Notes under the pieces: model-generated | What the model was told of the DNA's origin: nothing | Databases searched by the model: none | Seen by the model: only the letters and a program-made list of their open reading frames with translations | Made by a program: the position numbers and the translations under genes | Assembly (NCBI GenBank): GCA_039208735.1 | Contig: JBCCQY010000148.1 | Location: 1-23,415 of the forward strand | Direction: 5' to 3' | DNA from: Myxococcota bacterium | GTDB lineage: Bacteria > Myxococcota_A > UBA796 > GCA-2862545 | Length of the DNA: 23,415 nucleotides | Shown here: positions 3,528 through 22,993 of the stretch, one piece after another | Layout: each line of letters starts with the position of its first letter | Position numbering within the stretch: position 1 is the first letter of the stretch

Positions 3528-3606
3528 GATGATCCTCCTTGGATGCATCAAAGCTAGGTTCGTGCCGGTCGCCAGAATGTGGCGAGTTGTGCCAGAGGGG
3601 GAAGTC

Positions 3607-5793: not shown

Positions 5794-6471
5794 TCACGGT
5801 GGATCCACCTTGGGTGATGACTCGGGCTCGGGCGGCGGTGGAACTTCGGGAACGCGAGGCTCCTCCAGAGGCACCGACATGGGGTCGAAGCTCTGAATCT
5901 CTTCCTCGATCGCGCGCTCGCGGCGTTTGCGCCCTCCGACCGCTCCGCCCCGGAGGAACAACCCAAACCCGATCCCGCCGGTGAGCGACGCTTGACGCTC
6001 GAGAATGTAGTTCGGTCCGCCCTCGAGCCGAAACGTGAGGCCTACAGGACGCGTGAACCACCACACCCCACCGGCGGCAACGCGCGCAATGAGGCCGAAG
6101 CGGAATTCGGGGTCCTCGCTTAGGCTGTCGTCGGCCAACACAGCGCCTTCGACGGATATCCGCCAAAACGCCCCGGCCTTCAGCAGATCGACGCCACCGC
6201 CGAACTCTGGGCCCAGCGAGACGAGAGCCGTCTCGGGACCTGAAAGCACGGGTGCGGCCGAGACGGCCGACAGGCGCAGTCCCGCGCGGTTGTAGCGCCC
6301 GTACTGCAGCGTTGCTGTGTAGGGCCCCCAAAACGCCCCCCCTGCAATGCCGATAGCGCCTCCTCGAACGACCGGACCTGCAAAGTCGTTCCATGCGGCC
6401 CCCAAGGAAAGTTCGGCGTAGCCACCACCGCCACCTGCAAAAGCGAATGCGGTCCACAGCAGCCAAGTCAC
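5794..6471 (-). CDS. Hypothetical exported protein, possibly a small outer-membrane beta-barrel with a Pro/Glu-rich tail
   Basis: GTG start overlaps the upstream TGA (GTGA, 6468-6471). Short signal MTWLLWTAFAFA. Alternating Gly/aromatic beta-strand patterns up to GGIGFGLFL, then a charged and Pro-rich tail. Confidence 0.7.
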   Translation of the reverse strand: MTWLLWTAFAFAGGGGGYAELSLGAAWNDFAGPVVRGGAIGIAGGAFWGPYTATLQYGRYNRAGLRLSAVSAAPVLSGPETALVSLGPEFGGGVDLLKAGAFWRISVEGAVLADDSLSEDPEFRFGLIARVAAGGVWWFTRPVGLTFRLEGGPNYILERQASLTGGIGFGLFLRGGAVGGRKRRERAIEEEIQSFDPMSVPLEEPRVPEVPPPPEPESSPKVDPP

Positions 6472-8021
6472 GCGCGCTCCAGTCGCGTCAGGGACCGACG
6501 CGTCTCGAGGTAGCTGTAGGTGTCCTGTTCAACGGGGGCGAAACTGTAGCGTTGGCACGCCCCGTCTTCTTCGAGGTGCCAAGCCACGACGGTCGTCCCT
6601 TCGGGGTCTGCCTCAAGCGCCCAGATCAGTCGCTCAAAGCGGCCCGCGGCGCCGCTGTTGTAGTACCGACCGAGCGGCCCCGACGGCACGGTTCGAACCT
6701 CGTGGGTATGGCCGAGCACAAGGTCCGCATCGACCCGCCAGCGCTCGAGCCCCAGCACAACAGCCATCTCATCGAGATGGCGGAACTTGAAGAACTGCTT
6801 GCCGAGCATGGCTTGCTCGATGATCTTTTCGGGTTGGTAGACGCCGTACCGTGCGCTGGCTTGCCAGTTCTCGGCTGCATATTCCCAGGCGATGGGGTGA
6901 CCGAACAGCGCTTCCCATGCTTCGGCCCATTCGTCGACCGCACCATCGCCCGAAGCCAGCAGGGCGGTAGCCATGGCGCCGAGTGCTCCGCGGTTCCCGT
7001 GGCCGTGGGTCGACAAGCGGTTCGGAAAGCCCCCACGAAGAATGCGCGACACTTCGTGGGCGCCCCACGTACGGTCCGGGCCCTGGTACCACACGCCGAG
7101 GCACTCGCTGATGACTTCGCCGTACAGCGTTGCAATGCCGGGAGCCGTGGCCTGATCGAATTGATGACCATGCAGGATGGCCATGGGACGTTCACGGTCG
7201 ATGATGGCCACATCGACGGGCCGAACGAAGTCTTCGCCCGTCTTTAGCGCCTGCAGATTGTAGTCGTGGTTTCCCGCCACTCGGATGAGCTGGCCACTCG
7301 CATGCAGCTGCCGAAGCGTGTCGTAATAGGCCTGGTTTCCCGGCGCAGAACGGATAGCGTCATACTGGGCCTGGCGACGGGGAATGCGCGCCTGGACCAG
7401 CGCCTCAAAGGTCGCGACCGGGTTCGAGGCAATGCCTCGCAAAAGGTCTCGGGCGTGGCGCGTCCGCACCCGACGTCGAGACCCTCCGGTGAGCACCTCG
7501 GCGTAAAGCCCTTCCGTGACATCGGGTTCGAGGATGACCAAGTCTTCGATGTCGCCGTCTTCCACAACGGTCCAGTCGTTCTCGCCGTAGTGTTGCAGGA
7601 TGCGGGTGTAGCCATCGCGGTTGGCGCGCCAGACGCCGCTCTGACGATTTTCGTCCGGCAGGATGTGGTGGTCTGAGAAGATGACGACGCGCTCGGCGGA
7701 GGTGCGACGTACGGTGCGAAACCCCGGCTGTTCGGTCGGGCGATGGTCGAGCACCTCGTTCAGCCCGCGCATCCCCTTCTCGACGACCTGGTCGATGCTC
7801 GGCCAAGCGCCCAACTGCCGAATGGCTTGTTGTACGCGGAAGAGGCTGCGGAACGTCCGTTTGTCGCCCTGCAGGGCATAGCGTTCTGCCATTTCCAAGA
7901 ACAACGAGCGCTGCATCGAGGAGGCGAGGCCTGCTTCGGCGGGGGCCGGTACGCCTAGGGCGAGGAGCGCTCCGAGGCCTGTGAGCAGCTCACGTCGTTG
8001 AGCGTCCAGGTTTGCTTCCAT
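6468..8021 (-). CDS. Tat-exported calcineurin-like metallophosphoesterase (LpxH/YbbF-like motif set)
   Basis: Twin-arginine signal QRRELL...AEA. All five metallophosphoesterase motifs are present: FSDHH, GDIED, GNHD, HGH and GHTH. GGGAG lies upstream of the ATG. Confidence 0.85.
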   Translation of the reverse strand: MEANLDAQRRELLTGLGALLALGVPAPAEAGLASSMQRSLFLEMAERYALQGDKRTFRSLFRVQQAIRQLGAWPSIDQVVEKGMRGLNEVLDHRPTEQPGFRTVRRTSAERVVIFSDHHILPDENRQSGVWRANRDGYTRILQHYGENDWTVVEDGDIEDLVILEPDVTEGLYAEVLTGGSRRRVRTRHARDLLRGIASNPVATFEALVQARIPRRQAQYDAIRSAPGNQAYYDTLRQLHASGQLIRVAGNHDYNLQALKTGEDFVRPVDVAIIDRERPMAILHGHQFDQATAPGIATLYGEVISECLGVWYQGPDRTWGAHEVSRILRGGFPNRLSTHGHGNRGALGAMATALLASGDGAVDEWAEAWEALFGHPIAWEYAAENWQASARYGVYQPEKIIEQAMLGKQFFKFRHLDEMAVVLGLERWRVDADLVLGHTHEVRTVPSGPLGRYYNSGAAGRFERLIWALEADPEGTTVVAWHLEEDGACQRYSFAPVEQDTYSYLETRRSLTRLERA

Positions 8022-9711: not shown

Positions 9712-9746
9712 CTTGGTCCTCGCTTGCCGTACGTAGAGTCTCGAGC

Positions 9747-9767
9747 TGAAATTGAATTTCAATTTCA
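9747..9767. promoter_or_regulatory. Fur-family operator upstream of the methyltransferase
   Basis: TGAAATTGAA-T-TTCAATTTCA is a perfect 10-1-10 palindrome. It equals two 7-1-7 units offset by 6 bp, and lies 35 nt upstream of the start. Confidence 0.8.
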
Positions 9768-9847
9768 ATAACGCGGTTCGAACTGAGGTCACGCATTGGG
9801 CAGCCTCCGGCCAGTCGGGTTCGCCCGCCGACCGGGCCGAGTTCGAG

Positions 9848-10597
9848 CTACCTCAGCCGGGCCTTGATGCTCCCGACCAGGCGCCGACTCACCGGCAAAC
9901 GCTCCGTCGATCCAGTGAGCACCACGTGCCAACCGTCATCATCCATCGAGAGCAGCTCGAGGTGCCTTAGGTTCACCAAGGTCGAGCGGTGGATCCGCAC
10001 GAAGGGCGGATCGGGCAGAGCCGATTCCCAAGCCTGCAACGACTCCTTGATCACCTGGTTCCGTCCGCTTGCGAGCACCACCTCGGTGTAGTCCCGGGCC
10101 GACCGGAGTGCGACGATGTCGCCGACCCTTGCGAAGACGATGTCGCGTCCGCGTTGGAGGCAGATCCGGTCGCCGAGGCCGAGGGGACCCGATGGCGTGG
10201 TGCTTCGGCGCGGAAACAAGAGCGGCGCTGGGGCAACGGGCGATGCCCGCTCACGAATACGTCCGAGCGCCCGCTCGAGCTGCAGACGGTCGACAGGCTT
10301 CACGAGGTAGTCCACCGCGTCAATCTCGAAGGCCGTGAGCGCATGCTCGCTGTAGGCCGACACACAGATCACCCGGCAGTCGCTCGACACCGCCCGCACC
10401 GCATCGAAGCCCATGCCATCGCGCATGCGCACGTCGAGGAACACGACGTCCGGTGCGAGCGCCTCGATGGCCGCCACCGCAGACTGGACCGAGTCGGCCT
10501 CCCCCACAACGGTCACGTCATCGCGCTCGCCGAGGAGGGAACGCAGCGCTACCCGCGAGAGTGGTTCGTCGTCCACGACCAGCGCCCGGAGCGTCAC
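9848..10597 (-). CDS. LytTR (LytR/AlgR) family response regulator
   Basis: Receiver motifs VVDDE, FLDVRM (phospho-Asp), SAY and LVKP. LytTR domain FVRIHRSTLVN...LPVSRR. Start moved to GTG 10597, overlapping the kinase stop (GTGA). Confidence 0.93.
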   Translation of the reverse strand: MTLRALVVDDEPLSRVALRSLLGERDDVTVVGEADSVQSAVAAIEALAPDVVFLDVRMRDGMGFDAVRAVSSDCRVICVSAYSEHALTAFEIDAVDYLVKPVDRLQLERALGRIRERASPVAPAPLLFPRRSTTPSGPLGLGDRICLQRGRDIVFARVGDIVALRSARDYTEVVLASGRNQVIKESLQAWESALPDPPFVRIHRSTLVNLRHLELLSMDDDGWHVVLTGSTERLPVSRRLVGSIKARLR

Positions 10598-11679
10598 TTG
10601 GCTGCACTTGGGATCTCGTCGGGCAGCCGTTCGTCGGTGTCGTAGGTGATGCGTGCCACGACCCATTGGTCACGCTCGATGAGGGTGAACGTCCCGGTTC
10701 GGGGGTAGCGGGTGGCAAGTCGCTCGCGAACGAGCCGCAGGCCTGAACCGTTCGCAGGAGTCGGGGTCCGGACCAACGAACCCGTATTGGCGACCTCGAG
10801 CGTCAAACAGGACCCGACCTGCTCGGCACGCAGCTCGACGAGCAGGGCTCGCTGTCCAGTCATGCCGTGCTTGACTGCGTTCTCGACCAGCGGCTGGAGA
10901 AGCAGGCTCGGCACCGAAGCACTCGAGAGTCGCTCGTCAATGTCCACGCGGAGGTGCAGCTCGGCGCCGAACCGTACCTGTTCGCACTGCAGGTAGCGCA
11001 GGACGAAGTCCAATTCGAGGTCCAGAGTCGTGGTGGTCTGCTCGGCGGTCTCGAGAGCGGTGCGAAGGAGTCGGGACAGGTCGCGGAGCATATCCTTGGC
11101 TCGTCCCGGGTCGACCTCGACGAGGCCGATCACCGAGTTCAGGGAATTGAACAGGAAGTGTGGGTTGATCTGCGATCGCAGGGCCTGCAGTCGCGCCTCC
11201 TTCGACTGCGCCTGGCTCTCGAGCAGCCGTTCGCGAACCTGCTGCAGGTGACGGGTGGACCGAACAGCCTGGTGGATGTAGCTCCAGCCGAACAGCGAGA
11301 AGGTGAAGAAGGGCAGCATGATGTCATAGACGTTGTCGACGTACCCGGGGCTCTGCCAGGTGGTGCTCGCCCATGCGTGGCGCATTGCACTCGCACATGG
11401 GATGCCGAGCAACAGCGACGCGCCGAAGTACCCGCCCGCCACCCAAAAGCCAGCCCCGGGGCGAGTTATCCATCGGTTGGGGAGGGCTTGGTAGAGCCCT
11501 CCAAGGCCCGTCGACGCTGCGATCCCTAGGCCCACGCACAAGGCGAAGATGGCGATAGACTCGTCCAAAGGGGCCTGTTCGAGGTCGAGATCGCGCACGA
11601 TGCGCGGTCCGATGGCGGCCGCGGTCATCAGCGTCCAGCCAAGGATCTGGGTCGACCAGAACACTCTCGAACCGATCAT
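10594..11679 (-). CDS. LytS/YehU-type membrane sensor histidine kinase
   Basis: About four N-terminal TM helices, H-box LRSQINPHFLFNSLN, LLQPLVENAVKHG, and NGSGLRLVRERL. GGAG lies upstream of the ATG, 14 nt after the lipoprotein stop. Confidence 0.93.
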   Translation of the reverse strand: MIGSRVFWSTQILGWTLMTAAAIGPRIVRDLDLEQAPLDESIAIFALCVGLGIAASTGLGGLYQALPNRWITRPGAGFWVAGGYFGASLLLGIPCASAMRHAWASTTWQSPGYVDNVYDIMLPFFTFSLFGWSYIHQAVRSTRHLQQVRERLLESQAQSKEARLQALRSQINPHFLFNSLNSVIGLVEVDPGRAKDMLRDLSRLLRTALETAEQTTTTLDLELDFVLRYLQCEQVRFGAELHLRVDIDERLSSASVPSLLLQPLVENAVKHGMTGQRALLVELRAEQVGSCLTLEVANTGSLVRTPTPANGSGLRLVRERLATRYPRTGTFTLIERDQWVVARITYDTDERLPDEIPSAAK

Positions 11680-11693
11680 CGCGTGCTCCGGGT

Positions 11694-12980
11694 CTACAGC
11701 GGGCTGACGCCAATGATGATGCCAGGCGCCTCAAAGGTGTCCACCGGATTCTGCGGATCGTCGATGTTCACGAAGCGCGTGCTGCTGAAATCGGCGCCAA
11801 AGCGCGCGATGTAGAGACTGTCGAGGATCCGCAGCGTCGCGAGGGCACCCGAGGTCGTGCCAATCGCGTCGATGCGCGTCGCCGTGGTCGCCGTGGCCGG
11901 ATCGTCGACCTGGAAGGCCACCCAAGCATCGGCGTTCAGCATGTCCTGGTCCGTCGTCTCGTCGGTGATCGGGGCGATCGTCTCGTCGTAGCCCACCAGG
12001 AACACCGAGCCGTCGGGTCCGAGCGCGAGTTCGCCGGTTGCCGCAAGGCCCGTCCAGTCCGCAATGGCAGGCTCGTAGTCGTCGTCGAAGGTCGCCGTCT
12101 CGATGTCCATGCGGACCATGCACGGCGGAAAGGTTCCCTCGATGCCCAGCCGATGACGGGCTGCCGTGCGAGCGCCGTTGCTGACATAGACGTAGCCATC
12201 GTCACTGGCCACAACGCTGGTATTGCTGGCTCCCCCGCACCGATCGGTGGTCGTGTGGACGATGGCGTCGGTGGCGATCTCGATGGTCGTGAGCACGACA
12301 TTCGACGTCGCAAGCTGTGTCGCCTGATCGAAGTACCCGCCCGCTGCGATGACCCGGTCGCCGACCACCAGGGCTGGCGAAATGCCGAAGCTCTGGCCCT
12401 TGGGAGCGGCGATATCGTCGAGTGAGAGCGTCTCGATGATCGTCATCGAACTCGGGTTCCAAACTACGACCTGCAGCGCAACGTCGTCGATGTAGTAGCC
12501 CTTGGTGTCCGAAACCACGAGAAGCCGTCCTGGACGGGCAGAGATGGTCGTGACGCCCAGATTCTGGAAACTCACCGTCTTGCCAAGGGTGAAAGTGCCC
12601 TCTTCGTCGATGTCGTATCGGGTGACGGTGGGTGCCTCGCCGCTACCCGCCCACAGCGTGCGTCCGCGAGTTGCACAGGCCGGAAACGGGGGCAAGGTGA
12701 CCACCGACGCCAGGTCGACGGTCGTATCGAGGTCGAACGAGTCGATCACGGTCGCATAGCCACCGGGCCCTTCGTCGGTAAACAGCAGTCCGCACAGTGA
12801 GAACCCGTTGCTGCCATCAAGGGGAGGGGTTCCGGTCTCTTCGGCACCTGTCTCCTCCGGCATCGAGTCGGTAGACACCGCATCATCGGTCGTGCAGGCC
12901 GAGGTGATGCAGAATGCGACGGCACAGAAGATGGCGAAGACCTTCCGAAGGAACGGGCCAGGGGTCGTCGAAGGATGCAC
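11694..12980 (-). CDS. MxcI-like lipoprotein (putative beta-propeller partner of a siderophore receptor)
   Basis: Start moved to GTG 12980 (AGGAG 6 nt upstream). Lipobox ITSAC, then an acidic linker. Motifs PTVTRY..G..SF.NLG, SDTKGY, VWNPSSMTI, RC..DGYVY.S and PCMVR...FD resemble myxobacterial MxcI proteins as I recall them; no search was run. Confidence 0.7.
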   Translation of the reverse strand: MHPSTTPGPFLRKVFAIFCAVAFCITSACTTDDAVSTDSMPEETGAEETGTPPLDGSNGFSLCGLLFTDEGPGGYATVIDSFDLDTTVDLASVVTLPPFPACATRGRTLWAGSGEAPTVTRYDIDEEGTFTLGKTVSFQNLGVTTISARPGRLLVVSDTKGYYIDDVALQVVVWNPSSMTIIETLSLDDIAAPKGQSFGISPALVVGDRVIAAGGYFDQATQLATSNVVLTTIEIATDAIVHTTTDRCGGASNTSVVASDDGYVYVSNGARTAARHRLGIEGTFPPCMVRMDIETATFDDDYEPAIADWTGLAATGELALGPDGSVFLVGYDETIAPITDETTDQDMLNADAWVAFQVDDPATATTATRIDAIGTTSGALATLRILDSLYIARFGADFSSTRFVNIDDPQNPVDTFEAPGIIIGVSPL

Positions 12981-13066
12981 GGAGTTCTCCTGCCGCGTCG
13001 AAACGCGCTGGTTCGGGGAAAATGGACGAGCAACGGCGCGGGCCCGCGCGACGTGGGTGTCCTTAA

Positions 13067-13087
13067 TGACATTGAAATTCATGTTCA
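13067..13087. promoter_or_regulatory. Fur-family operator for the lipoprotein-kinase-regulator operon
   Basis: TGACATTGAAATTCATGTTCA: two degenerate 7-1-7 units offset by 6 bp, forming an AT-rich island. Confidence 0.7.
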
Positions 13088-13113
13088 AGTCGAGTATTAA
13101 AGCCGATCTTCGC

Positions 13114-13273: not shown

Positions 13274-14842
13274 ATGCCGCTCTTTCCACGCAAGGATCGC
13301 CAGCACCGTGTCTCGTACGACGTCCACACCTGGGCTGGGGTCGTCATCGGGTTGCTGCTGTACGTGATGTTTTTTACCGGCGCGATCGCGCTGGTCACCG
13401 AGCCGCTCGGCACGTGGGAGGAGCCCGCGCATCACGAAGCGGCCACCGGCACGCCGGGCGAGTGGTGGGCTTCACTGCCCGCCGAAGGCGACGACGTCGA
13501 CCGGGTGTCGCTCACCTTGCCGGACCCAAGCCACGGCCACCAGGCCCCGACAGGGATGGTGTCCCGCGACGGCGACCGTACCTACCTCGTGTGGCGATCG
13601 GGAGCGTGGGCCGAGCGAAGCTCCCACGCCGCGAGTTTCCTCTTCCGGCTGCACTTCCTCTACCATCCTTCCGTGCCATGGATGATCAACGTGGCGGGCC
13701 TGATCTCGATGGCCATGCTGCTCGCGCTGCTCACGGGGCTCGTCATCCATCTCCGCGACCTGTGGACCGACCTCGACACCTTCCGTCCAAAGCTGCCCAT
13801 CCGGGCCGTCTGGACCGATCTTCACAAGGTCACCGCGGTCATCGGCCTGCCCTTTCAGCTGCTCTTCGCCTACACCGGGGCGGTGCTGTGCCTGTCGTCG
13901 TTTGTGATCGCAGCGGTGGCCCTGCCCCTGTACAACGGCGACGTGGATCGACTCCGCAGCCTGCTATTCGAGACCCCACCCCCCATCGCGGCCGAGGCCG
14001 AGCCCGCTCCGATGAAGCCACTGCCCGAGTTGCTCACCGCGGCGCAGATCGCCGCTCCGACGATGGAGCCGTCGTTCGTCAGCGTCTCGAACCCAGGTCT
14101 CGCGACCTCCGAGGTTCGCATCGGGGGCGTCGTCCAAGGCACCAACGAACGAGCCAACATCCTGCTCGAGGCCACGACCGGTGAGGTGCGGATGGTGCAG
14201 GGCCTCGAGCCCCCTAAGCCACACCAGGCGCTAATCAACTGGCTGTTCGCGCTGCACTTCGCTCAGTTCGGGGGTGGAATGGTGCTGGTGGCCTACGCCG
14301 TCCTCGCCCTCGCGACCTGCGCCACCATCCTGTCGGGCATCGCGATCTGGCTGGGCAAGCGGCGACGCGCCAGCGACTGGGGCACCTGGCTGCTCCGCGG
14401 GCTCACCACCGGAGTGGGGGCAGGGTTGCCCCTCGCGTGTGCGGGCATGCTGCTTGCGAGCCGCGTGCTCCCCTGGTCGCTGACCGGCCGGGCTGACTGG
14501 CTCGAGGGCCTCTTCGTCGGGCTGTTCGTCTCGGCGCTCGCGTGGGGACTGGCCGACCGCAACGAGTCCCGGGCTTGGGCAGGCATGATGGGCCTTACCG
14601 CCGTCAGCTGTTTCCTCGCCCCAGTGTTCCAGGCCACCCTCACCTCAGCAGGCTTGGGTGGCGCACAGCCGCAGGCCGAGGTGGTCGGGGTCGACATCGG
14701 ATTCCTGGTGTGCGGACTTCTCTTCGCGACGGGTGCATTCGGCGCAGCGAGACGGGCCCGACGCCTCTCGGAAGCCGTCGAATCCCCGGCCCTGGCCGCG
14801 CCGTCGCTCGAGATGCCGAGCAAGGCGGTGGCCCGTGGTTGA
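13274..14842 (+). CDS. PepSY-associated TM-helix iron-regulated membrane protein (PiuB/FoxB-like, possible ferric reductase)
   Basis: YDVHTWAG..GLLLYVMFFTG, FRLHFL, TDLHKVTAVIGLPF.L.FA.TG and ALHFAQFGG. These carry the four His positions typical of the family, with many TM helices. Confidence 0.92.
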   Translation: MPLFPRKDRQHRVSYDVHTWAGVVIGLLLYVMFFTGAIALVTEPLGTWEEPAHHEAATGTPGEWWASLPAEGDDVDRVSLTLPDPSHGHQAPTGMVSRDGDRTYLVWRSGAWAERSSHAASFLFRLHFLYHPSVPWMINVAGLISMAMLLALLTGLVIHLRDLWTDLDTFRPKLPIRAVWTDLHKVTAVIGLPFQLLFAYTGAVLCLSSFVIAAVALPLYNGDVDRLRSLLFETPPPIAAEAEPAPMKPLPELLTAAQIAAPTMEPSFVSVSNPGLATSEVRIGGVVQGTNERANILLEATTGEVRMVQGLEPPKPHQALINWLFALHFAQFGGGMVLVAYAVLALATCATILSGIAIWLGKRRRASDWGTWLLRGLTTGVGAGLPLACAGMLLASRVLPWSLTGRADWLEGLFVGLFVSALAWGLADRNESRAWAGMMGLTAVSCFLAPVFQATLTSAGLGGAQPQAEVVGVDIGFLVCGLLFATGAFGAARRARRLSEAVESPALAAPSLEMPSKAVARG

Positions 14843-15164
14843 AGCGATCGCCACCGCGGCCGCGCTGGGCTCGGCGGGCCTGCTGATCGCGGCGCGAGAC
14901 TCCGAATCATGGGTGCCGTCGGGCCTCGGCTATGCGGCGGCGGCACTGTCCTACGCCGGCAGCATGGGGGCGGCGCGGTTCAGTGGACTCGACGCCGACA
15001 CCTGGTGGCTGTTGCCACTCTCCGTCTTCACGGCGGGATTCACCACGATCGCACTGACGCGCCCGATCGGAGCGCGCGCTTGGTTCGACGGCGCCGCGGG
15101 CCTGGCCTCCGGTCTCGCACTGCTCGGCACGGTCGGCCTGATGGGAGGCCTTCTTGCCGCGTGA
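14835..15164 (+). CDS. Small membrane protein (109 aa), in the position DUF3325-like partners occupy in PepSY-TM operons
   Basis: GTG 14835 overlaps the PepSY-TM stop by 8 nt. MVEAIATAAALGSAGLL... has about four hydrophobic helices. The upstream part of the track ORF (from 14658) is non-protein-like. Confidence 0.7.
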   Translation: MVEAIATAAALGSAGLLIAARDSESWVPSGLGYAAAALSYAGSMGAARFSGLDADTWWLLPLSVFTAGFTTIALTRPIGARAWFDGAAGLASGLALLGTVGLMGGLLAA

Positions 15165-15444
15165 GTCGACCTGGAACGGCCGGTGGGACACCATCGGGCG
15201 CAACGTCGCAGCGATCGTGGGGACCCTGCCGCCGTCGGTGCTCGTGGTGTCACTGATCTGTCGAGTGCTCCCGCTTGAGGAGGCCATGGGGGTCGTCGTA
15301 GGCGGCCTGTCGCTGCCCTTCGTCTGGGCGACCGCGGTGTGGCTCCTCTACCTGGTGCCCACCGCACTCCGGGCCTGGGCCATCGTGCTCATCAGCTTCA
15401 TGGGGCTCGCATTCGCCACATGGTTCCTCGGTCCGATGCCCTGA
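15154..15444 (+). CDS. Small membrane protein, DUF3649-like iron-uptake accessory
   Basis: TTG start with GGAGG 5 nt upstream and three TM helices. The pattern R.VAA...LP..E.......VW..AV......ALRAW resembles DUF3649 as I recall it. Confidence 0.72.
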   Translation: MPRESTWNGRWDTIGRNVAAIVGTLPPSVLVVSLICRVLPLEEAMGVVVGGLSLPFVWATAVWLLYLVPTALRAWAIVLISFMGLAFATWFLGPMP

Positions 15445-15471: not shown

Positions 15472-18400
15472 TCACAGCCTGCCGTTGTCGGTCGGAGTCC
15501 GCTCGTAGGAAAGCCAGGCGTCGAGAACCAGGCCGTCCCAGGCCCAGGGTTCGATGTGGCTTTCGGAGGGGGCCCAGCCACCGTCCGACCAGCTCCAGCG
15601 CTGGCCCTGGACGTCGCCCGACGTCAGGTTCAGGTCGGACATGCGGGGAGCGCCGAGACTCGCGGTGGGCAGACGGTCGGCGATGCGGCCCGTCGTGAGG
15701 CGATCGATGGTCTCGGTTAGCTCGACCGGAGACTGTCGGCCGACCCACGGAAGCGCCGCAAGCGGGGCGTACTCCCCAGCCCAGCTCCCGGGCGGTGCGT
15801 CACCCACCGACCCCACGGGCACCGCACTCGCGGCTAGCGACAGGGTCAAATCCTGCGACCACTGCGACAACAGATCGGTGGCCACCTCAGGACCGTCCAG
15901 ATCGCCTACCGCGAGCAGCGCGAGCGCCCGCGGGATGCCCTCGGTGAGCCAGGCCTCTCCTGACTCGTCGCGGAGGTCGGCGCGCTCCGCGAGCGTGGCG
16001 CGCACAATGGCCGCACCGATCTCGGCCCGCCGGTCGGAGCGCCCAGGCCCTTCGGGCCCCACGTCCCAGCCGTGATCCTCGGGCAACATCAGCACGCCGT
16101 CGGCCATGACCGGCTCGCCCCACACGCGGGGCACCTGCACCACGGTGGTGACCGGCGAGACTTCGGGCAGCCGGGCCCGGAGCGCGCGGGTCGTCTGCTC
16201 GATGTCCTCGGCGACCTCGCGAGCGGCATCCGTGAATCCAGGCCCGGCGAGAACGGTCAAGCCACTTGCCGGGTGGGAACGCAGCCGGGGGGCCCACCAA
16301 GCCACGAACTCCAAATGACCCTCCGTGCGGCCCTTGCGAAGCACATCCCCGTCGGGGGTCCGCATGGTCACCGTCCACGTCCAGTCCCCCGCCGGGGCCA
16401 CGCCGTAGGCGGCCGTGGTCGCGGTGGCTGACAGCTCGGGAACGCTCGGCGGCAGATCGTGGTTCCGCCGATACCGGGGTGACCGCAGGATGCGCCGAGG
16501 ATCAAGGCCCAGTCGGGGCACGGCATGCTCGGCCCGCATCCAAGTGCCCTGGGACAGCGACCAGTGGGGTTCACCGTGCGCCGACCAGCCCTCATCCATC
16601 ACCGTCCAGCGCAGGGTGACGTCATGTGGATCGGCATCGCCCAGCGGCACCGCTAGCGTGTCTTCGGCGAGGCGGGGCGACACCGTCGCGCCATCGACCG
16701 TCGCCTCTTGCAGGGCAAAGCCGTCCGGTACGTGCGCGAAGAGCTGTCCTCCCGCTGCCTGGGCGTCAGCGAGCGACCACGTGCCCTGGACGCGCCCTGG
16801 CTCGACCGTGAGCGCAAGCGAGCCCCCTGCGACCGACCACGGCGCCGCCTCGCTGGCCCAAGCCTTCTCCCAAGCGGCATCGTCGGCGAGTTCTTGCCCC
16901 GAAGAGGCGTAGCCCCCGCGCGTAACGTACTGCTGGTACTGGACGACGGCTGAGGCACCAGCCACGACTGTCGCGCCGACGAGGACCACACCCGCGGCCC
17001 CCCGAAGCCGCCGGACAGCGACCGGTCCACGGGTGGCGAAGTCGCTCTCGACACCACGAACGACAAAGAGGTACCCGATTCCCATCACGAGGACCGAGAC
17101 CGAGAGCTTGTAGAGGACCGACACGGACACGAGCCCGGCCCACGGGGCCCAGCCGGTCAGCGCCGAGACCTCGATCGCCGACGGGATCGCGAACTCGAAC
17201 GTCGGATAGGACACGAGGTCCAGTTCGTGGTTCACGACGAGCACGAACACCGTGGCGATCGACAGACCATAGGCAAGGCCTGGCGAGCGGAGTGCAGTGT
17301 GGCAGAGCACGACCACCGCTCCGATCTCGAGGAGCGCCGGTGCGAGCACGGTGAGCTGATAAATCCACGGCGAAGCCCAGGCGGCCTCCGACGAAGCGAA
17401 GGCCGCAATGAGCACCGTCGAAGCCATGGCCGGAAGCAGGGAAAAGCCGACGATGAGGATCGTGGCGGTGAGCACGCTCGCCACGAAGCGCACCCCGGGA
17501 GGGGCGGGGCAAGCGTCGAGCATCTCCGAGAAGCCGATGGCATCGTCGCGGCGAAACACCGCCCCCACCACGGCCAGAATCACGAAGGCCAAGACGATGT
17601 ATTGGAAGTTCGCCATTAGGGGCCCCACAATCTCGGCCCGGGGCAAGATCGGGCCACGGGCATGCCCCAGGATGTGAACGAACCCACCTGCCATCCCCAT
17701 CGCCAGGAGCAGCACCGCGGTGACCCAGAGTCCCGGCCCTCGCAGCGCCAGGCCGAGCTGCCAGCGGGCGTCCTCGAGTGTGGCGTGGACCCAGGAGGTT
17801 TGGTTCGGCGAGGGGGAGAACGAGCCAGGAGGGACGGTGACGGACTTCGCGAACTTCCGGTTACGCGGCGCCCGCTCCAGCACCAGGTGCTCCCGCCGGG
17901 TCGTCACGAGGACGAAGGGAAGCAGGCCGAGCGGCAAAAGCCCCCAGACCAACCGATTGACCACCAGAGCTGGGGTCCACTCGAGCCAGGCCGTCATGCG
18001 CTCAGCCGGCGTCCACGCCAACACCTGATACTCAACCTCGGCGTAGGCGCTGGGATCGATGATTCCGGCCGTGAGCGGATCGATGTCCCCACCCTTCACG
18101 ATCACCATCGCGGCCATCCACAGCAGCACCATTGCGGTAGCGACGGCAAACGGTCCCGCCGTGCTCCGGGTGCGGATCGCGGCCACGAGGAAGAGCGCCC
18201 CGTAGCCGAACGCCGAAGGGACCGCGAGGCAGAGCCAGGCCCAGCCGAGCGTGCCCCAAGGCGTGGGCATCACCGTCCCCGCGTCGTAGAGACCGACGGC
18301 CGCCATCGGCTCGATCACGAAGGCGGCCAGCGGGCTCGACGCGGCGATGACAAGCGCCGTAACGGAGGCGCCCAGGAAGCGGGCGCCGAGCAGACTGCTG

Positions 18401-18708
18401 ACGGGAACGGGGGTCGCCAGCACCATCTCGTGCATTTGTGCGGTGCGGTCCCGTACTACGGGCTGCGCATAGACCCACGCCCACGCGATGAACAGCCAGA
18501 ACGTGTTGCCTGCGACCATCAGGTAGAGCACAAACGGCGAATTGCGCGCGACATCCACCGCACCGAGCTCACGCAGGTAGCCCGCGTGCGACAGCACGAG
18601 CACCATGTAGCCAGCCAGCAACGCGAACATCACCCACGTGAAGGGGCTCGTCAGCCCGGAGCGGGCTTCGTGGTAGGCCTCGGCCAATAGCGTGCGCAGG
18701 CGACTCAC
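15472..18708 (-). CDS. ABC-2-type permease (two membrane halves) fused to a degenerate M1-aminopeptidase-like domain (1078 aa)
   Basis: Start moved to GTG 18708 (GTGA overlap with the ATPase stop). Two permease halves (VVRDRTAQMHEMVLATP; FRRDDAIGFSEMLDACP), NRLVW and YE/WEK.W-like motifs. The soluble C-domain has WLTEG and a terminal ERTPTDN but no HEXXH. Confidence 0.85.
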   Translation of the reverse strand: MSRLRTLLAEAYHEARSGLTSPFTWVMFALLAGYMVLVLSHAGYLRELGAVDVARNSPFVLYLMVAGNTFWLFIAWAWVYAQPVVRDRTAQMHEMVLATPVPVSSLLGARFLGASVTALVIAASSPLAAFVIEPMAAVGLYDAGTVMPTPWGTLGWAWLCLAVPSAFGYGALFLVAAIRTRSTAGPFAVATAMVLLWMAAMVIVKGGDIDPLTAGIIDPSAYAEVEYQVLAWTPAERMTAWLEWTPALVVNRLVWGLLPLGLLPFVLVTTRREHLVLERAPRNRKFAKSVTVPPGSFSPSPNQTSWVHATLEDARWQLGLALRGPGLWVTAVLLLAMGMAGGFVHILGHARGPILPRAEIVGPLMANFQYIVLAFVILAVVGAVFRRDDAIGFSEMLDACPAPPGVRFVASVLTATILIVGFSLLPAMASTVLIAAFASSEAAWASPWIYQLTVLAPALLEIGAVVVLCHTALRSPGLAYGLSIATVFVLVVNHELDLVSYPTFEFAIPSAIEVSALTGWAPWAGLVSVSVLYKLSVSVLVMGIGYLFVVRGVESDFATRGPVAVRRLRGAAGVVLVGATVVAGASAVVQYQQYVTRGGYASSGQELADDAAWEKAWASEAAPWSVAGGSLALTVEPGRVQGTWSLADAQAAGGQLFAHVPDGFALQEATVDGATVSPRLAEDTLAVPLGDADPHDVTLRWTVMDEGWSAHGEPHWSLSQGTWMRAEHAVPRLGLDPRRILRSPRYRRNHDLPPSVPELSATATTAAYGVAPAGDWTWTVTMRTPDGDVLRKGRTEGHLEFVAWWAPRLRSHPASGLTVLAGPGFTDAAREVAEDIEQTTRALRARLPEVSPVTTVVQVPRVWGEPVMADGVLMLPEDHGWDVGPEGPGRSDRRAEIGAAIVRATLAERADLRDESGEAWLTEGIPRALALLAVGDLDGPEVATDLLSQWSQDLTLSLAASAVPVGSVGDAPPGSWAGEYAPLAALPWVGRQSPVELTETIDRLTTGRIADRLPTASLGAPRMSDLNLTSGDVQGQRWSWSDGGWAPSESHIEPWAWDGLVLDAWLSYERTPTDNGRL

Positions 18709-19583
18709 GCGGCCTCCCGCGGTGCATCGGCGAGGGCGACATGGTAGGCGTCCTCGAGTCGCGGAGGGTGAGGCTGGAAGGCGTCGGTCGGCGCCGTCGC
18801 ACTCCGGACGACCACAAGGGTGCCTTCGGGTCGCGCAGAGACGTGGATGGCTTCGGGAAGCGACTCGCCCCGAGGCACCACCCGTGACCACAACTGTCCC
18901 GCCAGCGGGGCCTCGAGTTCGTCGGGCGTGCCCTCCGCGACGATGCGTCCCTGGTCGAGGATCGCGAGGCGGCGGCACAGGTGCTCGACGTCTTCGACGA
19001 TGTGAGTGGACAGCAGCACCACGGCGTCCGTCGCGACCTCGGCGAGCACGCGATGGAACCGGTTGCGCTCGGCCGGGTCGAGCCCCGCGGTCGGCTCGTC
19101 GACGATGATCAGCCGCGGGGCCGCGAGCAGTGCGACGGCGATGCCAAAGCGCCGGCGCATTCCCCCCGAATAGGTCGCAACGGCCTGGTTGCCCGCGGCC
19201 GACAGGTTCACGCGGTCCAGCAGCGTCCCGACTTCACGGTCCCGCTCCGCCCGGTCCGTGCGCCCTTTGAGCCAGGCAAAGCGATCGAGGAGCTGACGCC
19301 CCGACACCGATGGATAGCTGCCGATGCTCTGGGGCAGGTAGCCAAGGTTGCGTCGCAGGTGGTCGGGGTCGGCCAGGCCATCGACGCCGTCGAGATGCAC
19401 CGATCCGCCGTCAGGGCGCTGCAGCGTCGCCAGCGTGCGCATCAATGTCGACTTACCGGCCCCATTCGGGCCAAGGAGCCCGTACATACCGGACTCGACA
19501 GTGAAGGAGACACCATCGAGGGCGCGAATGCCGTTGGAATACGTCTTCGAGAGGTTTTGCACGACGAGGCCAGGTTGGGACAC
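18705..19583 (-). CDS. ABC transporter ATP-binding protein (ABC-2/drug-exporter type)
   Basis: Walker A GPNGAGKST, Q-loop YLPQ, signature YSGGMRRR, Walker B IIVDEPT and H-loop LSTH. GTG start with GGAGGGAG upstream. Confidence 0.96.
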   Translation of the reverse strand: MSQPGLVVQNLSKTYSNGIRALDGVSFTVESGMYGLLGPNGAGKSTLMRTLATLQRPDGGSVHLDGVDGLADPDHLRRNLGYLPQSIGSYPSVSGRQLLDRFAWLKGRTDRAERDREVGTLLDRVNLSAAGNQAVATYSGGMRRRFGIAVALLAAPRLIIVDEPTAGLDPAERNRFHRVLAEVATDAVVLLSTHIVEDVEHLCRRLAILDQGRIVAEGTPDELEAPLAGQLWSRVVPRGESLPEAIHVSARPEGTLVVVRSATAPTDAFQPHPPRLEDAYHVALADAPREAA

Positions 19584-19601
19584 GCTCCCTCCATTGCTAA
19601 A

Positions 19602-19616
19602 TGAAAACGGTTTTCA
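19602..19616. promoter_or_regulatory. Fur-family operator upstream of the ABC operon
   Basis: TGAAAAC-G-GTTTTCA is a perfect 7-1-7 palindrome 18 nt upstream of the ATPase start. Confidence 0.8.
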
Positions 19617-19672
19617 CTTCTTCAGGCGTTTATCGACTGAACAACGCATCGCAACCGTCGCTCGGTCACCTT

Positions 19673-19694
19673 TGAAACCGAATTTCATTTTTCA
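19673..19694. promoter_or_regulatory. Second Fur-family-like operator upstream of the ABC operon
   Basis: TGAAACC-G-AATTTCA followed by TTTTTCA, forming an AT-rich island. Confidence 0.62.
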
Positions 19695-19916: not shown

Positions 19917-20444
19917 TCAGGGCGTGTCGCGGAGCTCGAGCGACGCGGCACTGCCTCCGACGACGTAGGAAGCCGCGCCTTCCACACCGTCAATCGAGAC
20001 ATCCCCCCATGGGACCTCGTCGAAGGGTACGATCTCGTAGGTCACGGTGACGGGCTCCTCTTCGGTGCCGTCGTCGAAGCTCGGAAGCGTCACGGCGACC
20101 ACGGGCTCCGCCATGGCGAGCGTGAAGCCCGAAAACGTAAGGTCGCCCACGGGCTCCGGGTGCGCGTCCGGGCTGACCGACAGCGAGAACAGATCCGTCT
20201 GGGTCAGCGACTGTGGCACGTCACCGAGGACGTACACCGTCACGCCCCCCTCGGGCACGTCGCCGTCCAGCGAAAGCGTGAACGTGGTCGACGAAGCCGG
20301 GGCTTCCGTCAGGGTCGGCGGCGCGATGGTCAAGCTGACCACGGGCTCGGCGTCGACACCGGTCTCACCCGTCTCGCCGGTGGGGTCGGAGGATGTCTCG
20401 GCGCAGGCAGGAAGCAGTACCACAAGGGCAGTCAATCGGAGCAA
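19917..20444 (-). CDS. Small acidic lipoprotein with a single Ig/Calx-beta-like domain
   Basis: TTG start with GAGG upstream, lipobox LPAC and a TGETGETG linker. The beta-rich domain VVSLT...TFTLSLDG.VP.GGVTV...TLP.FDDG.EE...VTY resembles Calx-beta-like modules. Confidence 0.75.
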   Translation of the reverse strand: MLRLTALVVLLPACAETSSDPTGETGETGVDAEPVVSLTIAPPTLTEAPASSTTFTLSLDGDVPEGGVTVYVLGDVPQSLTQTDLFSLSVSPDAHPEPVGDLTFSGFTLAMAEPVVAVTLPSFDDGTEEEPVTVTYEIVPFDEVPWGDVSIDGVEGAASYVVGGSAASLELRDTP

Positions 20445-20462: not shown

Positions 20463-20483
20463 TGATAATGAATGTCGTTTTCA
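20463..20483. promoter_or_regulatory. Fur-family operator upstream of the small lipoprotein
   Basis: TGATAATGAATGTCGTTTTCA. The inner 19-mer matches the classical GATAATGATAATCATTATC at 14/19. Confidence 0.75.
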
Positions 20484-20542
20484 GTAGCAATTGAGAGAGG
20501 GGATCCGTTGACGCGTGCATCCACGAGGTTAGCCGTCCGAGC

Positions 20543-20565
20543 ATGAAAATGAATATCGTTTTCAT
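20543..20565. promoter_or_regulatory. Fur-family operator overlapping the receptor start codon
   Basis: ATGAAAATGA-ATA-TCGTTTTCAT is an inverted repeat with one mismatch. It matches the classical Fur 19-mer at 14/19. Confidence 0.75.
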
Positions 20566-22993
20566 CTGGCTTCTGGGAGCTGGGCCCGCTTGGGCACAGC
20601 CGGAAGCTCCGATGCCGGTTGAGCCGACGCCCTCCGACCCCGCGCCAGTCCCGGTCGAGCCTGTGCCGGAACCTGCCGAGCCCGAGCCGCCCCCGCCCGC
20701 TGCGCCGGCGGAGGGGTCGGTCACCGTGTCGCTGGCCGACCTACCCAACGACATCGCGGTTCGCATGCGCCTCATCCGTGCTGATGGCACCGCGCTGCCG
20801 CTCGTTCGTTCCGCTACCGGGGCGTTCGTGCAGCAGAAGGTGCCGATCGGATCCTGGATGATCGAGGTTGCCGATGACGAGACGGTGCTCTTGGAGCAAG
20901 TTGTCGAGGTGATTGCGGGCCAGACCACCCAAGTCCCTCTCTCGATGACGACCGACGACGACGTCACCGAGATTGTGGTGGTTGGCCTGACCGAGGCGAG
21001 CGAGATGCGCCGTTCGGCCGAGGCCGTGACCGTGGTCGAGACCGAGGAGGCCCAGCGGCAGTCCGCCGATCTCGGCGAGGTCATGGCCCGAACCCAGGGC
21101 GTCGGTGTACGTCGCGGCGGTGGGCTCGGCTCAGGTACGCGGTTCTCCCTCAACGGACTCACCGACGACCAAGTCCGGTTCTTCATCGACGGTGTTCCGC
21201 TCTCGCTTGCCGGCTACCCTCTGGGCCTTGCCAACGTGCCCGTCGACCTCGTACGGCGGGTCGAAGTGTTCAGGGGCGTGGTGCCCGTCCGATTTGGAGC
21301 GGACGCACTGGGTGGGGCGGTCAACCTCGTAAGCGAGTCCGAGCAGACGCGCACCGGCGGAAGCTTCTCGTACCAGGGGGGGTCGTTCGACACCCACCGG
21401 TTCGCCGCCAATGGACGCGGCAAGGCCGGGGGGCTGCGCCTCGCCGGGTCGGCCTACTTCGACACCTCTCGCAACGACTACGTCATCGACGTCGAAGTTC
21501 CCGACGAGCTCGGCCGGCTCTCGCCCACCGAGGTGCGTAGGTTCCACGATGGCTACCAGGCGGGTGGCGGCTCGGTCGAGGTGGGCGTCGCCGATGGCTC
21601 CTGGGCCGATGGCCTCACCCTGCGAGCGTTTGGGGCGGGATTCCGGAGGGAGTTTCAGCACAACGTTGTGATGACGATTCCCTACGGCGCGCCGGTGGGG
21701 ACGGTGATCACGGGCGGCACGATGTTGCGCTACCACCACAACCTCTCCGAGTCCGTTCGCATCGATGCGTTCGTGACCCCCACGCGGACCCGCCGCACCT
21801 TCACCGACACCGGCGACTGCATCGTCGACTGGTTCGGTCAGTGCGTGCGTGATCTCGACCCGGTGGGGGAGCTGTCGGTCGGCGGCATCGACGCCCGGGT
21901 CTTCGACAACAACCTCGTGGGGCGGCTCCGGCTCACCTGGCAGCCAAGCGACGGCCACACCTTCGAACTCGCGGTATCCCCGCAGACGTTCTCCCGGTCC
22001 GGCGAGAACCTGCTGTTGGACAACGAGGATGTACGTGACCCGCTGTCCGCCCGTCGGGACGCGAGCCAGCTGGTGAGTGGCCTTGAGCACATCGCGCGCA
22101 CCCGCGACGAACGGCTCGAGAACCGCGTGTTCGTCAAGCATTACGGCCAGTGGCTGCGTAGCGAGGAGCCGCTGCCGGGCGGGACCCTTCGCGACGTGAA
22201 TCGCAACACACAGCGGTTCGGGGCCGGCAACGGTACGCGGCTGCTGCTCGGTCAGTCCGCGTGGCTTAAGGCCTCCTACGAGTTCGCGACTCGGCTGCCG
22301 ACCCCCGACGAGGTCTTCGGTGACGCCGTGCTCGTGGTGGACAACCTCGAGCTACAGCCCGAGCAGAGCCACAACGTGAACCTGGGGCTGACCCTCGAGC
22401 CCCCGCCTGGCGCGACGGGGCGATGGACGCTCGACACCCAGCTGTTTGGTCGGTTCGCGAACGATCTCATCGTGCTGCTCGGCAACAGCCAGACATTTTC
22501 GTACTTCAACGTGTTCGGCGCACGCTCGGCAGGCCTCGAAGGTTCGGGGTCTTGGACGTCGCCTGGCGACGTCGTTCGCCTGTCGGCCAATGCGACGTGG
22601 CTCGAGTTCCGCAACACAAGCGACGAGGGCACGTTTGGCGACTTCGCGGGCGACCGCATCCCGAACCGGCCGTGGCTGTTCGCCAATGCATCGGCCCAAA
22701 TTGGTTCTTCGAACGTGGTGAGTGACGAGGATCGGCTCACGCTCGACTGGTACACGCGCTACGTTCACCCCTTCTTCCGGGGCTGGGAGAGCGTGGGACT
22801 CGTGCAGTTCAAGCAGGAGATCCCGGCTCAGCTCTCCCATGCGGTGGCCGTCACCTACGCCGTGCAGACCCCGCAGCGCCAGGTCAGCGTCTCGGCCGAG
22901 GTGCAGAACCTCACGGACGAAGCGTTGTTCGACTTCTTTGGAGTCCAGCGCCCTGGCCGATCGGTGTTCGGCAAGATTACCGTCGGTTTGTGA
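20543..22993 (+). CDS. mxcH: TonB-dependent siderophore receptor, MxcH (myxochelin receptor)-like
   Basis: Signal peptide (AWA-Q), Pro-rich linker, small N-terminal beta domain and TonB-box-like EIVVVG. Plug SAEAVTVVETE..SADLGEVMARTQGVGVRRGGGLGSGTRFSLNGL..RFFIDGVP..VEVFRGVVPVRFGADALGGAVNLV. Barrel ends NLTDEALFDFFGVQRPGRSVFGK. The TonB-receptor call is secure; MxcH orthology rests on recalled similarity. Confidence 0.9.
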   Translation: MKMNIVFIWLLGAGPAWAQPEAPMPVEPTPSDPAPVPVEPVPEPAEPEPPPPAAPAEGSVTVSLADLPNDIAVRMRLIRADGTALPLVRSATGAFVQQKVPIGSWMIEVADDETVLLEQVVEVIAGQTTQVPLSMTTDDDVTEIVVVGLTEASEMRRSAEAVTVVETEEAQRQSADLGEVMARTQGVGVRRGGGLGSGTRFSLNGLTDDQVRFFIDGVPLSLAGYPLGLANVPVDLVRRVEVFRGVVPVRFGADALGGAVNLVSESEQTRTGGSFSYQGGSFDTHRFAANGRGKAGGLRLAGSAYFDTSRNDYVIDVEVPDELGRLSPTEVRRFHDGYQAGGGSVEVGVADGSWADGLTLRAFGAGFRREFQHNVVMTIPYGAPVGTVITGGTMLRYHHNLSESVRIDAFVTPTRTRRTFTDTGDCIVDWFGQCVRDLDPVGELSVGGIDARVFDNNLVGRLRLTWQPSDGHTFELAVSPQTFSRSGENLLLDNEDVRDPLSARRDASQLVSGLEHIARTRDERLENRVFVKHYGQWLRSEEPLPGGTLRDVNRNTQRFGAGNGTRLLLGQSAWLKASYEFATRLPTPDEVFGDAVLVVDNLELQPEQSHNVNLGLTLEPPPGATGRWTLDTQLFGRFANDLIVLLGNSQTFSYFNVFGARSAGLEGSGSWTSPGDVVRLSANATWLEFRNTSDEGTFGDFAGDRIPNRPWLFANASAQIGSSNVVSDEDRLTLDWYTRYVHPFFRGWESVGLVQFKQEIPAQLSHAVAVTYAVQTPQRQVSVSAEVQNLTDEALFDFFGVQRPGRSVFGKITVGL

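Follow-up and report, generated by a model that had tools for sequence, protein, structure and literature searches.

Transporters in which an ATP-binding cassette (ABC) permease of the ABC-2 type ends in an M1 peptidase domain are catalogued as TCDB 3.A.1.145, with Q1D520 of Myxococcus xanthus among them, and carry no assigned function in the accessible part of the source (PMC3924187). A second relative stands in the published sorangibactin (srb) gene table. This table places SrbO (297 aa) and SrbP (1130 aa) after the receptor and a 407-aa protein, contains no inner-membrane transporter other than SrbOP, and names KYG09926.1 as the closest homologue of SrbP; the authors termed SrbL–P transporter-related and left them uninvestigated, and the accessible sections make no mention of a pseudo-peptidase domain (PMC10127202). 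For the XusABC system of Bacteroides, the accessible sections describe no ABC transporter and state that the inner-membrane iron carrier is unknown (PMC13142918). Here we analyzed a 23,415-nt contig of a Myxococcota bacterium (JBCCQY010000148.1, assembly GCA_039208735.1), referred to below as the window. AlphaFold2 modelling together with fold and profile comparison identified in it an SrbP-like permease of 1078 aa (15472..18708, minus strand), in which a tandem type V (ABC-2) membrane domain is joined to an M1 domain without a zinc site. Like the members of TCDB 3.A.1.145, it has 13 predicted helices and a C-terminal M1 domain and is homologous to them from end to end; unlike them, it has no zinc site, shows 17–25% identity to active members and falls into a clade of its own, and this dead family is tied to TonB receptors whereas the active members are not. 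We consider it highly likely that the protein is a transporter of a siderophore pathway that carries a dead cap.

The permease open reading frame (ORF) is intact, running from a GTG at 18708 through 1078 codons to a TGA ending at 15472, and its start overlaps the stop of the ATPase gene in the tetranucleotide GTGA (18705–18708). The ATPase (292 aa, 18705..19583, minus strand) is SrbO-like and matches PF00005, its best NCBIfam model being the DrrA-type TIGR01188 below cut-off; Walker A, Q-loop, the signature YSGGM, Walker B and the H-switch are all present. The coupling to an intact ATPase had been proposed in an initial annotation of this DNA and is borne out. A longer reading of the permease ORF (1168 aa) was rejected, as the upstream extension lies in the shadow of the ATPase. 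No Pfam or NCBIfam model matched the 1078-aa protein, searching the sequences of solved structures turned up chance matches only, and the nearest relative of this copy is 80% identical in the membrane part only.

The soluble domain comprises residues 598–1078 (15475..16917, minus strand), about 480 aa and thus larger than the roughly 400 aa first estimated. Its AlphaFold2 model, built with 69 sequences, reached a predicted local distance difference test (pLDDT) score of 93.9. Foldseek returned IRAP, PepN and ERAP1 at E 1e-15, and VIA matched the model to 1z1w with Z 21.8 (root-mean-square deviation (rmsd) 4.2, 384 residues aligned). The domain has the N-terminal beta-sandwich and the gluzincin catalytic domain of the M1 fold, with Atlas features at 0.94 to PF01433 clusters, and hhalign aligned the family profile with that of HEXXH-bearing ABC2-M1 fusions over residues 1–987 (probability 100, E 1.5e-68). 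Fusion of an ABC-2 permease to an M1-fold domain, as originally claimed, is therefore supported by AlphaFold2, Foldseek, VIA and hhalign alike. None of 69 soluble domains was matched by PF01433, the zinc-peptidase domain, or by any other Pfam or NCBIfam model; PF01433 does match C84, the active fusion encoded in the same genome. With the M1 zinc aminopeptidases (tricorn factor F3 1z1w, LTA4 hydrolase, PepN and Deinococcus 6a8z; Z 19–22) the domain shares the beta-sandwich and the thermolysin-like domain, but it has no HEXXH and only about 10% identity, the aligned range does not include a helical C-terminal domain, and it is membrane-tethered to a transporter.

The stretch AEIGAAIVRATL...AWLTEG, in which the initial annotation had recognized the remains of the zinc site, was located at residues 895–924 (bases 15937–16026). 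In a 140-row alignment the HEXXH-X19-E columns align without gaps to the active relatives as A899-A900-I-V-R903...E923, so that A899, A900 and R903 replace H, E and H and E923 is retained (15940..16014, minus strand). The register first given, in which AEIGA took the place of HEXXH, was off by four residues or one helical turn; the Glu of AEIG is not the catalytic one, and by this alignment the catalytic Glu is lost along with both zinc-binding His. A motif scan confirmed that HEXXH occurs nowhere in the 1078-aa protein, which thus contains no HEXXH-X18/19-E. Of 90 clade members, 2 keep the first H of the zinc site, 2 the E, 1 the second H and 24 the distal E; the full motif was found at the aligned site in 0 of the 90, one of which has a chance HEXXH at another position. 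The retained distal Glu is accordingly real for this protein (E923), but it carries little weight as it is kept in only 24 of the 90. As judged by the alignment, no set of replacement ligands is conserved across the clade and also retained here, the conserved His and Cys of the clade being absent from this copy. The column of the transition-state Tyr is a gap in 90 of 90 members, but Y980 (88/90), at a distance of two columns, may correspond to it. Around the old site W881, D882, R893, R913, W976 and Y980 are 90–99% conserved in the clade, unlike in the active family. GAMEN is a motif of M1 aminopeptidases; in a separate alignment the HEXXH-intact fusions were also without a recognizable GAMEN before the zinc helix, and may themselves be atypical aminopeptidases.

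Next, we investigated whether the loss is shared. Protein searches gave 17, 60 and 591 matches, the last represented by its best 150, and the alignment and tree set comprised 139 proteins of at least 990 aa together with the active paralogue of this genome (140 rows, the tail of row P0061 being shifted). In a quick IQ-TREE run with midpoint rooting, 90 full-length HEXXH-less proteins, including this one and near-copies, formed a single branch with a Shimodaira–Hasegawa-like approximate likelihood ratio test (SH-aLRT) value of 100, in line with the expectation that HEXXH loss defines a clade. HEXXH-X19-E is present in 21 of the 140 rows. A further 29 HEXXH-less rows (e.g. P0126, P0165 and P0182) fall outside the clade in three places of the tree, and for this reason the zinc site may have been lost repeatedly; in distant HEXXH-less ABC2-M1 rows Arg often stands at both His positions. 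A divergent 1094-aa fusion that keeps HEXXH and has no Pfam match (L099:4471-7752) adjoins a LytTR-type two-component pair. The clade contains P0048, which is KYG09926.1 and is 38% identical to the protein studied here, and through this closest homologue SrbP can be compared with the family.

We calculated pairwise ratios of nonsynonymous to synonymous substitution rates (dN/dS) for the soluble domain in 219 pairs with dS between 0.03 and 1.2, dropping pairs outside that range. Medians ranged from 0.16 to 0.35 across six lineage groups and no usable pair exceeded 0.42; the pair L051/L053 from non-producers gave 0.23. The HEXXH-less clade is thus under purifying selection, a point that the initial annotation had put up for testing, and does not represent isolated decay, so that a pseudogene or a single relaxed copy was rejected at the family level by the 90-member clade and the low dN/dS. 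None of the outcomes set beforehand as counting against the pseudo-enzyme was observed: the M1 fold is present, the alignment shows no conserved replacement ligand set, and the homologues of the clade are without HEXXH. A cap that merely helps the membrane domain to fold or stabilizes it, or a transporter for other iron-stress cargo (peptide, lipid or a precursor such as salicylate), would agree with a soluble domain whose rate of evolution reaches twice that of the membrane domain (dN/dS 0.21 versus 0.11 in Pseudomonas), with the loss of the final ~50 cap residues in the Pseudomonas members and with the fact that the HEXXH-intact parent family itself has no assigned function. However, the clade-specific residues near the old site and the ceiling of 0.42 on dN/dS speak against such a role, and we give this explanation little credence. 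The shortened members (L051–L082, 1017–1034 aa) come from Pseudomonas and Ectothiorhodospira.

In order to describe the genomic context we scanned GTDB genomes with one peptide pattern, which yielded a sample of 87 relatives; the 77 distinct loci retained from it come from Pseudomonadota, Acidobacteriota, Myxococcota and one Desulfobotulus. Of the 77 loci, 60 have a TonB receptor gene no more than 1.5 kb away and 69 have one no more than 5 kb away, and permease and nearby receptor are co-oriented at all of these loci except one; five of the eight loci without a receptor within 5 kb have a short flank. With lineages grouped by hand, linkage was found in 17/22 loci of Vicinamibacterales, 19/19 of Pseudomonas, 6/7 of Chromatiales and Ectothiorhodospirales, 5/5 of Burkholderiales and Rhodocyclales, 4/4 of Xanthomonadales, 3/3 of myxobacteria, 1/1 of Desulfobotulus and 14/15 of others, and in 0/1 of Janthinobacterium (a 1.1-kb contig). 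At 16 HEXXH-intact control loci, in contrast, a receptor was found within 1.5 kb in none and within 5 kb in one (at 4.5 kb); the control flanks measured about 6–8 kb, several being shorter on one side, and two contig ends were counted as one gene. Since the receptor profiles came from the test loci, the larger control ORFs were also run against Pfam (29 + 9). The link to TonB receptors, which the initial annotation had put up for testing, is thus supported. The receptors tested from proteobacterial and acidobacterial loci were closest to FyuA, the yersiniabactin receptor (2/2). In 71 of the 77 loci no more than 240 bp separate an ATPase gene from the permease match; in three the ATPase gene is a few kb off, and three contigs show none. 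The Vicinamibacterales loci L007, L009, L012 and L081 carry two to four tandem copies of the dead-type permease. A class-wide search for distant HEXXH-less lineages returned active members and one known clade copy. A fragmented permease of a distant, apparently HEXXH-less lineage (L100:4935-11374) adjoins a fragmented TonB receptor, which hints at receptors accompanying the zinc-site losses of other lineages too.

Other suggested partners recurred less. The PepSY gene proposed as a linked neighbour is rare, occurring in this window and at 2 of the 77 loci, and handling of lipoproteins, one of the functions first considered, finds no support, as DUF4374-like lipoproteins flank myxobacterial loci only (3/77, plus four of the five copies in this genome). 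Among the neighbour clusters we observed no recurrent gene for a binding protein, an outer-membrane channel or a copper enzyme.

Biosynthetic genes lie within 10 kb at 27 of the 77 loci. Longer stretches from four of these revealed parts of one cluster type with two large non-ribosomal peptide synthetases (NRPS) and a YbtPQ-type half-ABC pair together with reductases, methyltransferases, a P450, a VOC protein, an aryl ligase and a chorismate-binding enzyme, a content that agrees with the sorangibactin gene table. The bulbichelin and anthrochelin clusters are said to be similar in the accessible part of PMC13573596; from the names of the organisms, L047, L049 and L048 probably represent these clusters. 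SrbO/SrbP resemble our system in that the closest homologue of SrbP is a clade member and in their neighbours, an ATPase, an MxcH-type receptor and a lipoprotein of about 410 aa, but the sorangibactin cluster has biosynthetic genes and the window has none. By this relation to SrbP the gene context supports siderophore handling well, as the initial annotation had supposed. A thiazolinyl reductase, a marker that misses other siderophore types, scored over cut-off in 12 of 51 carrier genomes and not in the remaining 39, to which the present genome belongs (the 51 represent 50 of the 77 loci and the present genome, and many of them are incomplete). Among 301 Pseudomonas genomes the permease was found in 10, the receptor in the identical 10 and the biosynthetic enzyme in 8 of them, a co-occurrence that reflects the history of one island and not ten tests, because the genes travel together. 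According to the accessible text, a pyochelin-like cluster of P. simiae WCS417 did not confer siderophore activity in the conditions examined (PMC4509608). The family follows the receptor and not biosynthesis.

We next focused on the membrane part (residues 1–597; 16918..18708, minus strand), which consists of two six-helix ABC-2 halves and a 13th anchor helix. The full-length AlphaFold2 model, built with 64 relatives, had a mean pLDDT of 90.6 and showed 13 helices in the membrane, followed by the soluble domain, and the two halves are related to each other at E 1e-6. Nine basic residues precede helix 7 and five precede helix 13, with none before helices 4, 10 and 12; because of this placement (positive-inside rule) the N-terminus is predicted inside and the C-terminal domain periplasmic, which agrees with the location first assumed for the cap. 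Foldseek with the full-length model returned M1 matches only, and the membrane fold was identified by a separate structure comparison: NosY (Z 17.5, rmsd 3.8, 236 aligned), ABCG2 (Z 15.5) and PmtCD (Z 14.5), with the mycobacterial efflux pump 8k1m_B matching residues 1–554 at Z 15.2. The ABC-2/ABCG-type fold and the coupled intact ATPase make this a type V transporter. NosDFY provides the closest solved membrane fold and likewise has a large periplasmic partner, but here a single chain contains both membrane halves together with the periplasmic domain, and copper-enzyme genes do not recur nearby. NosFY transduces motion. By analogy, the present protein might carry nothing across the membrane and use ATP to move the cap, which would free the complex from the receptor or strip its metal while PchHI/YbtPQ-type or other carriers import the iron. 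This would account for the coexistence with YbtPQ described below, and for pyochelin the accessible texts report that the ferri-complex partly dissociates in the periplasm by an unexplained mechanism and that PchHI imports free iron (PMC11481552, PMC11354437). However, the margin of NosY over ABCG2 and the mycobacterial pump is only about 2 Z, near the old site no His/Asp/Cys set is kept throughout the clade and in this copy as well, and PepSY reductases fill the stripping role at some loci, which leaves a motion transducer improbable.

For the direction of transport, we place ferri-siderophore import with the pseudo-peptidase as a tethered binding protein at a probability of about 0.5, where the direction, the ligand and binding by the cap are what we infer. 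Under iron limitation the Fur-like boxes described below would free the operon, and the adjoining TonB receptor would carry a foreign metal-loaded siderophore to the periplasm. There the dead-peptidase cleft, tethered by helix 13 above the pseudo-dimeric membrane domain, would bind the siderophore and replace a separate binding protein, and two coupled copies of the ATPase would power its transfer to the cytoplasm. In the pyochelin system, the receptor operon fptABCX holds an inner-membrane importer and PchHI is encoded in the biosynthetic operon, as given in the accessible part of PMC11354437. The sorangibactin-type clusters are split likewise, with srbOP within the receptor operon, and import is favoured because the permease occupies the slot that FptX holds in fptABCX. 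It is further favoured by retention of the permease without biosynthesis, as 40 of the 77 loci have neither biosynthetic genes nor a YbtPQ-type pair nearby within the DNA covered, and by the lack of a recurrent binding-protein gene, a role that the tethered cap would fill. The wider proposition, that across four phyla an exporter-fold type V ABC transporter has turned inward with a dead aminopeptidase as its attached binding protein and takes up aryl-thiazoline and pirated siderophores, we hold tentatively, at slightly less than even odds.

Several observations weigh against import or weaken its support. The solved relatives of the type V fold either export substrates or transduce motion (NosY, ABCG2, PmtCD), the ATPase most resembles exporters of the DrrA type, and we know of no bacterial type V importer. 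YbtPQ-type importers lie within 10 kb at 13 of the 77 loci, 10 of these without biosynthetic genes, and such a pair is also found inside the three clusters covered far enough. Co-occurrence with the receptor is not independent evidence because the loci are related by descent and travel as a single island. In this genome two paralogues out of five (L001 and L004) stand beside resistance–nodulation–division (RND) efflux operons and TetR genes with no receptor directly adjacent. The PepSY reductase of the window could free iron already in the periplasm. This copy is moreover among the more divergent ones, keeping 82 of 97 conserved residues against a clade median of 91, and the cap cysteines at columns 695, 842 and 933, each Cys in 96% of the clade, are all absent from it. 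Alternatively, the protein may pump metal-free siderophore out of the cytoplasm, freshly made in producers or, in non-producers, already used and perhaps methylated, and the cap would take it over in the periplasm. Besides the fold, the DrrA-like ATPase and the coexistence with YbtPQ-type importers, such an exporter or recycler would fit the lack of a major facilitator superfamily (MFS) or RND exporter in the clusters covered and the distribution of the LCM-type methyltransferase, which 18 of the 50 non-biosynthetic loci have and none of the 27 biosynthetic ones; export of newly made pyochelin is treated as unsettled in the accessible part of PMC11481552. This methyltransferase may modify imported siderophores. 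Yet carriers are mostly non-producers (39 of 51 genomes), the permease is co-oriented with the receptor and not placed in the biosynthetic operon, and no outer-membrane channel recurs among the neighbours, so that we regard export as rather unlikely.

The window itself would represent a Fur-like-boxed siderophore-piracy locus resembling XusABC, since a receptor like XusA, a lipoprotein of the DUF4374-like kind and a PepSY protein, the components of the Bacteroides piracy system, are all encoded in it. The receptor (20543..22993, plus strand) is of the MxcH/XusA/SrbM type (NF038079, 934.9 bits at a cut-off of 925), and its best solved relative is 9GBC, XusAB (E 3e-76); it is MxcH/XusA-like and not FyuA-like, and its gene is divergent from the ABC operon. 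The lipoprotein (11694..13079, minus strand) is of the XusB/SrbN type, with a weak PF14298 match below cut-off (E 0.004) and a Fur-like box in its start region; it clusters with the gene in srbN position of Sorangium loci and has 12 matches in this genome. The PepSY-TM protein (13274..14842, plus strand; PF03929, E 2e-47) is of the XusC/FptC type and likely a ferri-siderophore reductase, a role taken from the accessible part of PMC13142918. It is followed by two small membrane ORFs without a family match (14835–15164 and 15154–15444, plus strand). Upstream of the ATPase lies a single-copy gene for a predicted lipoprotein of 175 aa with a lipobox-like start and no known family (19917..20444, minus strand), and a Fur-like-boxed LCM-type S-adenosylmethionine (SAM) methyltransferase (PF04072; 8890..9792, minus strand) belongs to the family that flanks 18 of the 77 related loci.

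Two operators had been proposed ahead of the ATPase. Fur-like palindromic boxes are indeed present at 19600..19618, directly upstream of the ribosome-binding site of the ATPase, and, as a second sequence pattern, at 19671..19689, but as Fur sites they match the consensus at only 11–12 of 19 positions. The same two boxes scored 23–24 bits against a matrix from 42 other sites of this genome, a value that is partly circular because the seed pattern was written after the boxes of the window had been seen. Overall, Fur-like boxes match the Fur consensus at 11–15 of 19 positions and recur ahead of iron-uptake genes, preceding the ATPase, receptor (patterns at 20467 and 20548), lipoprotein, PepSY and methyltransferase genes; from these patterns the operon may be under iron regulation. 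At the receptor, lipoprotein and methyltransferase genes the boxes (20542–20566, 13065–13089 and 9745–9769) extend over the probable start codon, so that the same bases serve as operator and as first codons. A comparable box was seen at the receptor start on C80, and a strong one directly upstream of the permease copy on C1.

The genome (92.7% complete) encodes five dead copies, one active fusion (C84) and six MxcH-type receptors; no matching thiazoline-type NRPS was found in it at this completeness, and none of 150 other genomes in the phylum sample contains a dead-type permease. Three of its dead-type permeases (L002:8091-11354, L003:8247-11699 and L004:8235-11639) have no ATPase gene nearby and may borrow an ATPase in trans, and elsewhere an LCM-type methyltransferase (L118:8485-9420) comes after a YbtPQ-type pair. 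The rest of the window encodes a secreted-looking protein of 690 aa with MopE-like, lamin-tail, TSP3 and hexapeptide-repeat parts (221–2293), an S41 peptidase-like protein (3424–5790), a metallophosphoesterase-like protein with a twin-arginine-like leader (6468–8021) and, downstream of the lipoprotein, a LytS/LytTR-type two-component pair (9848–11679), with a similar arrangement at L117.

In the open-access literature we found no publication on the zinc-less subfamily or on a link between ABC-M1 fusions and siderophores; the parent architecture had been catalogued, and SrbP listed in a table without study. Our findings provide a first functional handle on an unannotated family, the present member of which is matched by no Pfam or NCBIfam model, and on srbOP of the sorangibactin-type metallophore clusters, of which the srb cluster has already been expressed in Myxococcus xanthus, as stated in the accessible part of PMC10127202. 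If import is true, a type V ABC transporter would run inward with a pseudo-enzyme as its binding protein. If export is true, the system would be a secretion route for aryl-thiazoline siderophores, which is unresolved for pyochelin in the accessible part of PMC11481552, and if the metal is stripped in the periplasm, it would supply the missing dissociation step of pyochelin uptake (accessible part of PMC11354437). The family is a clean example of a catalytic loss that is accompanied by an altered gene neighbourhood.

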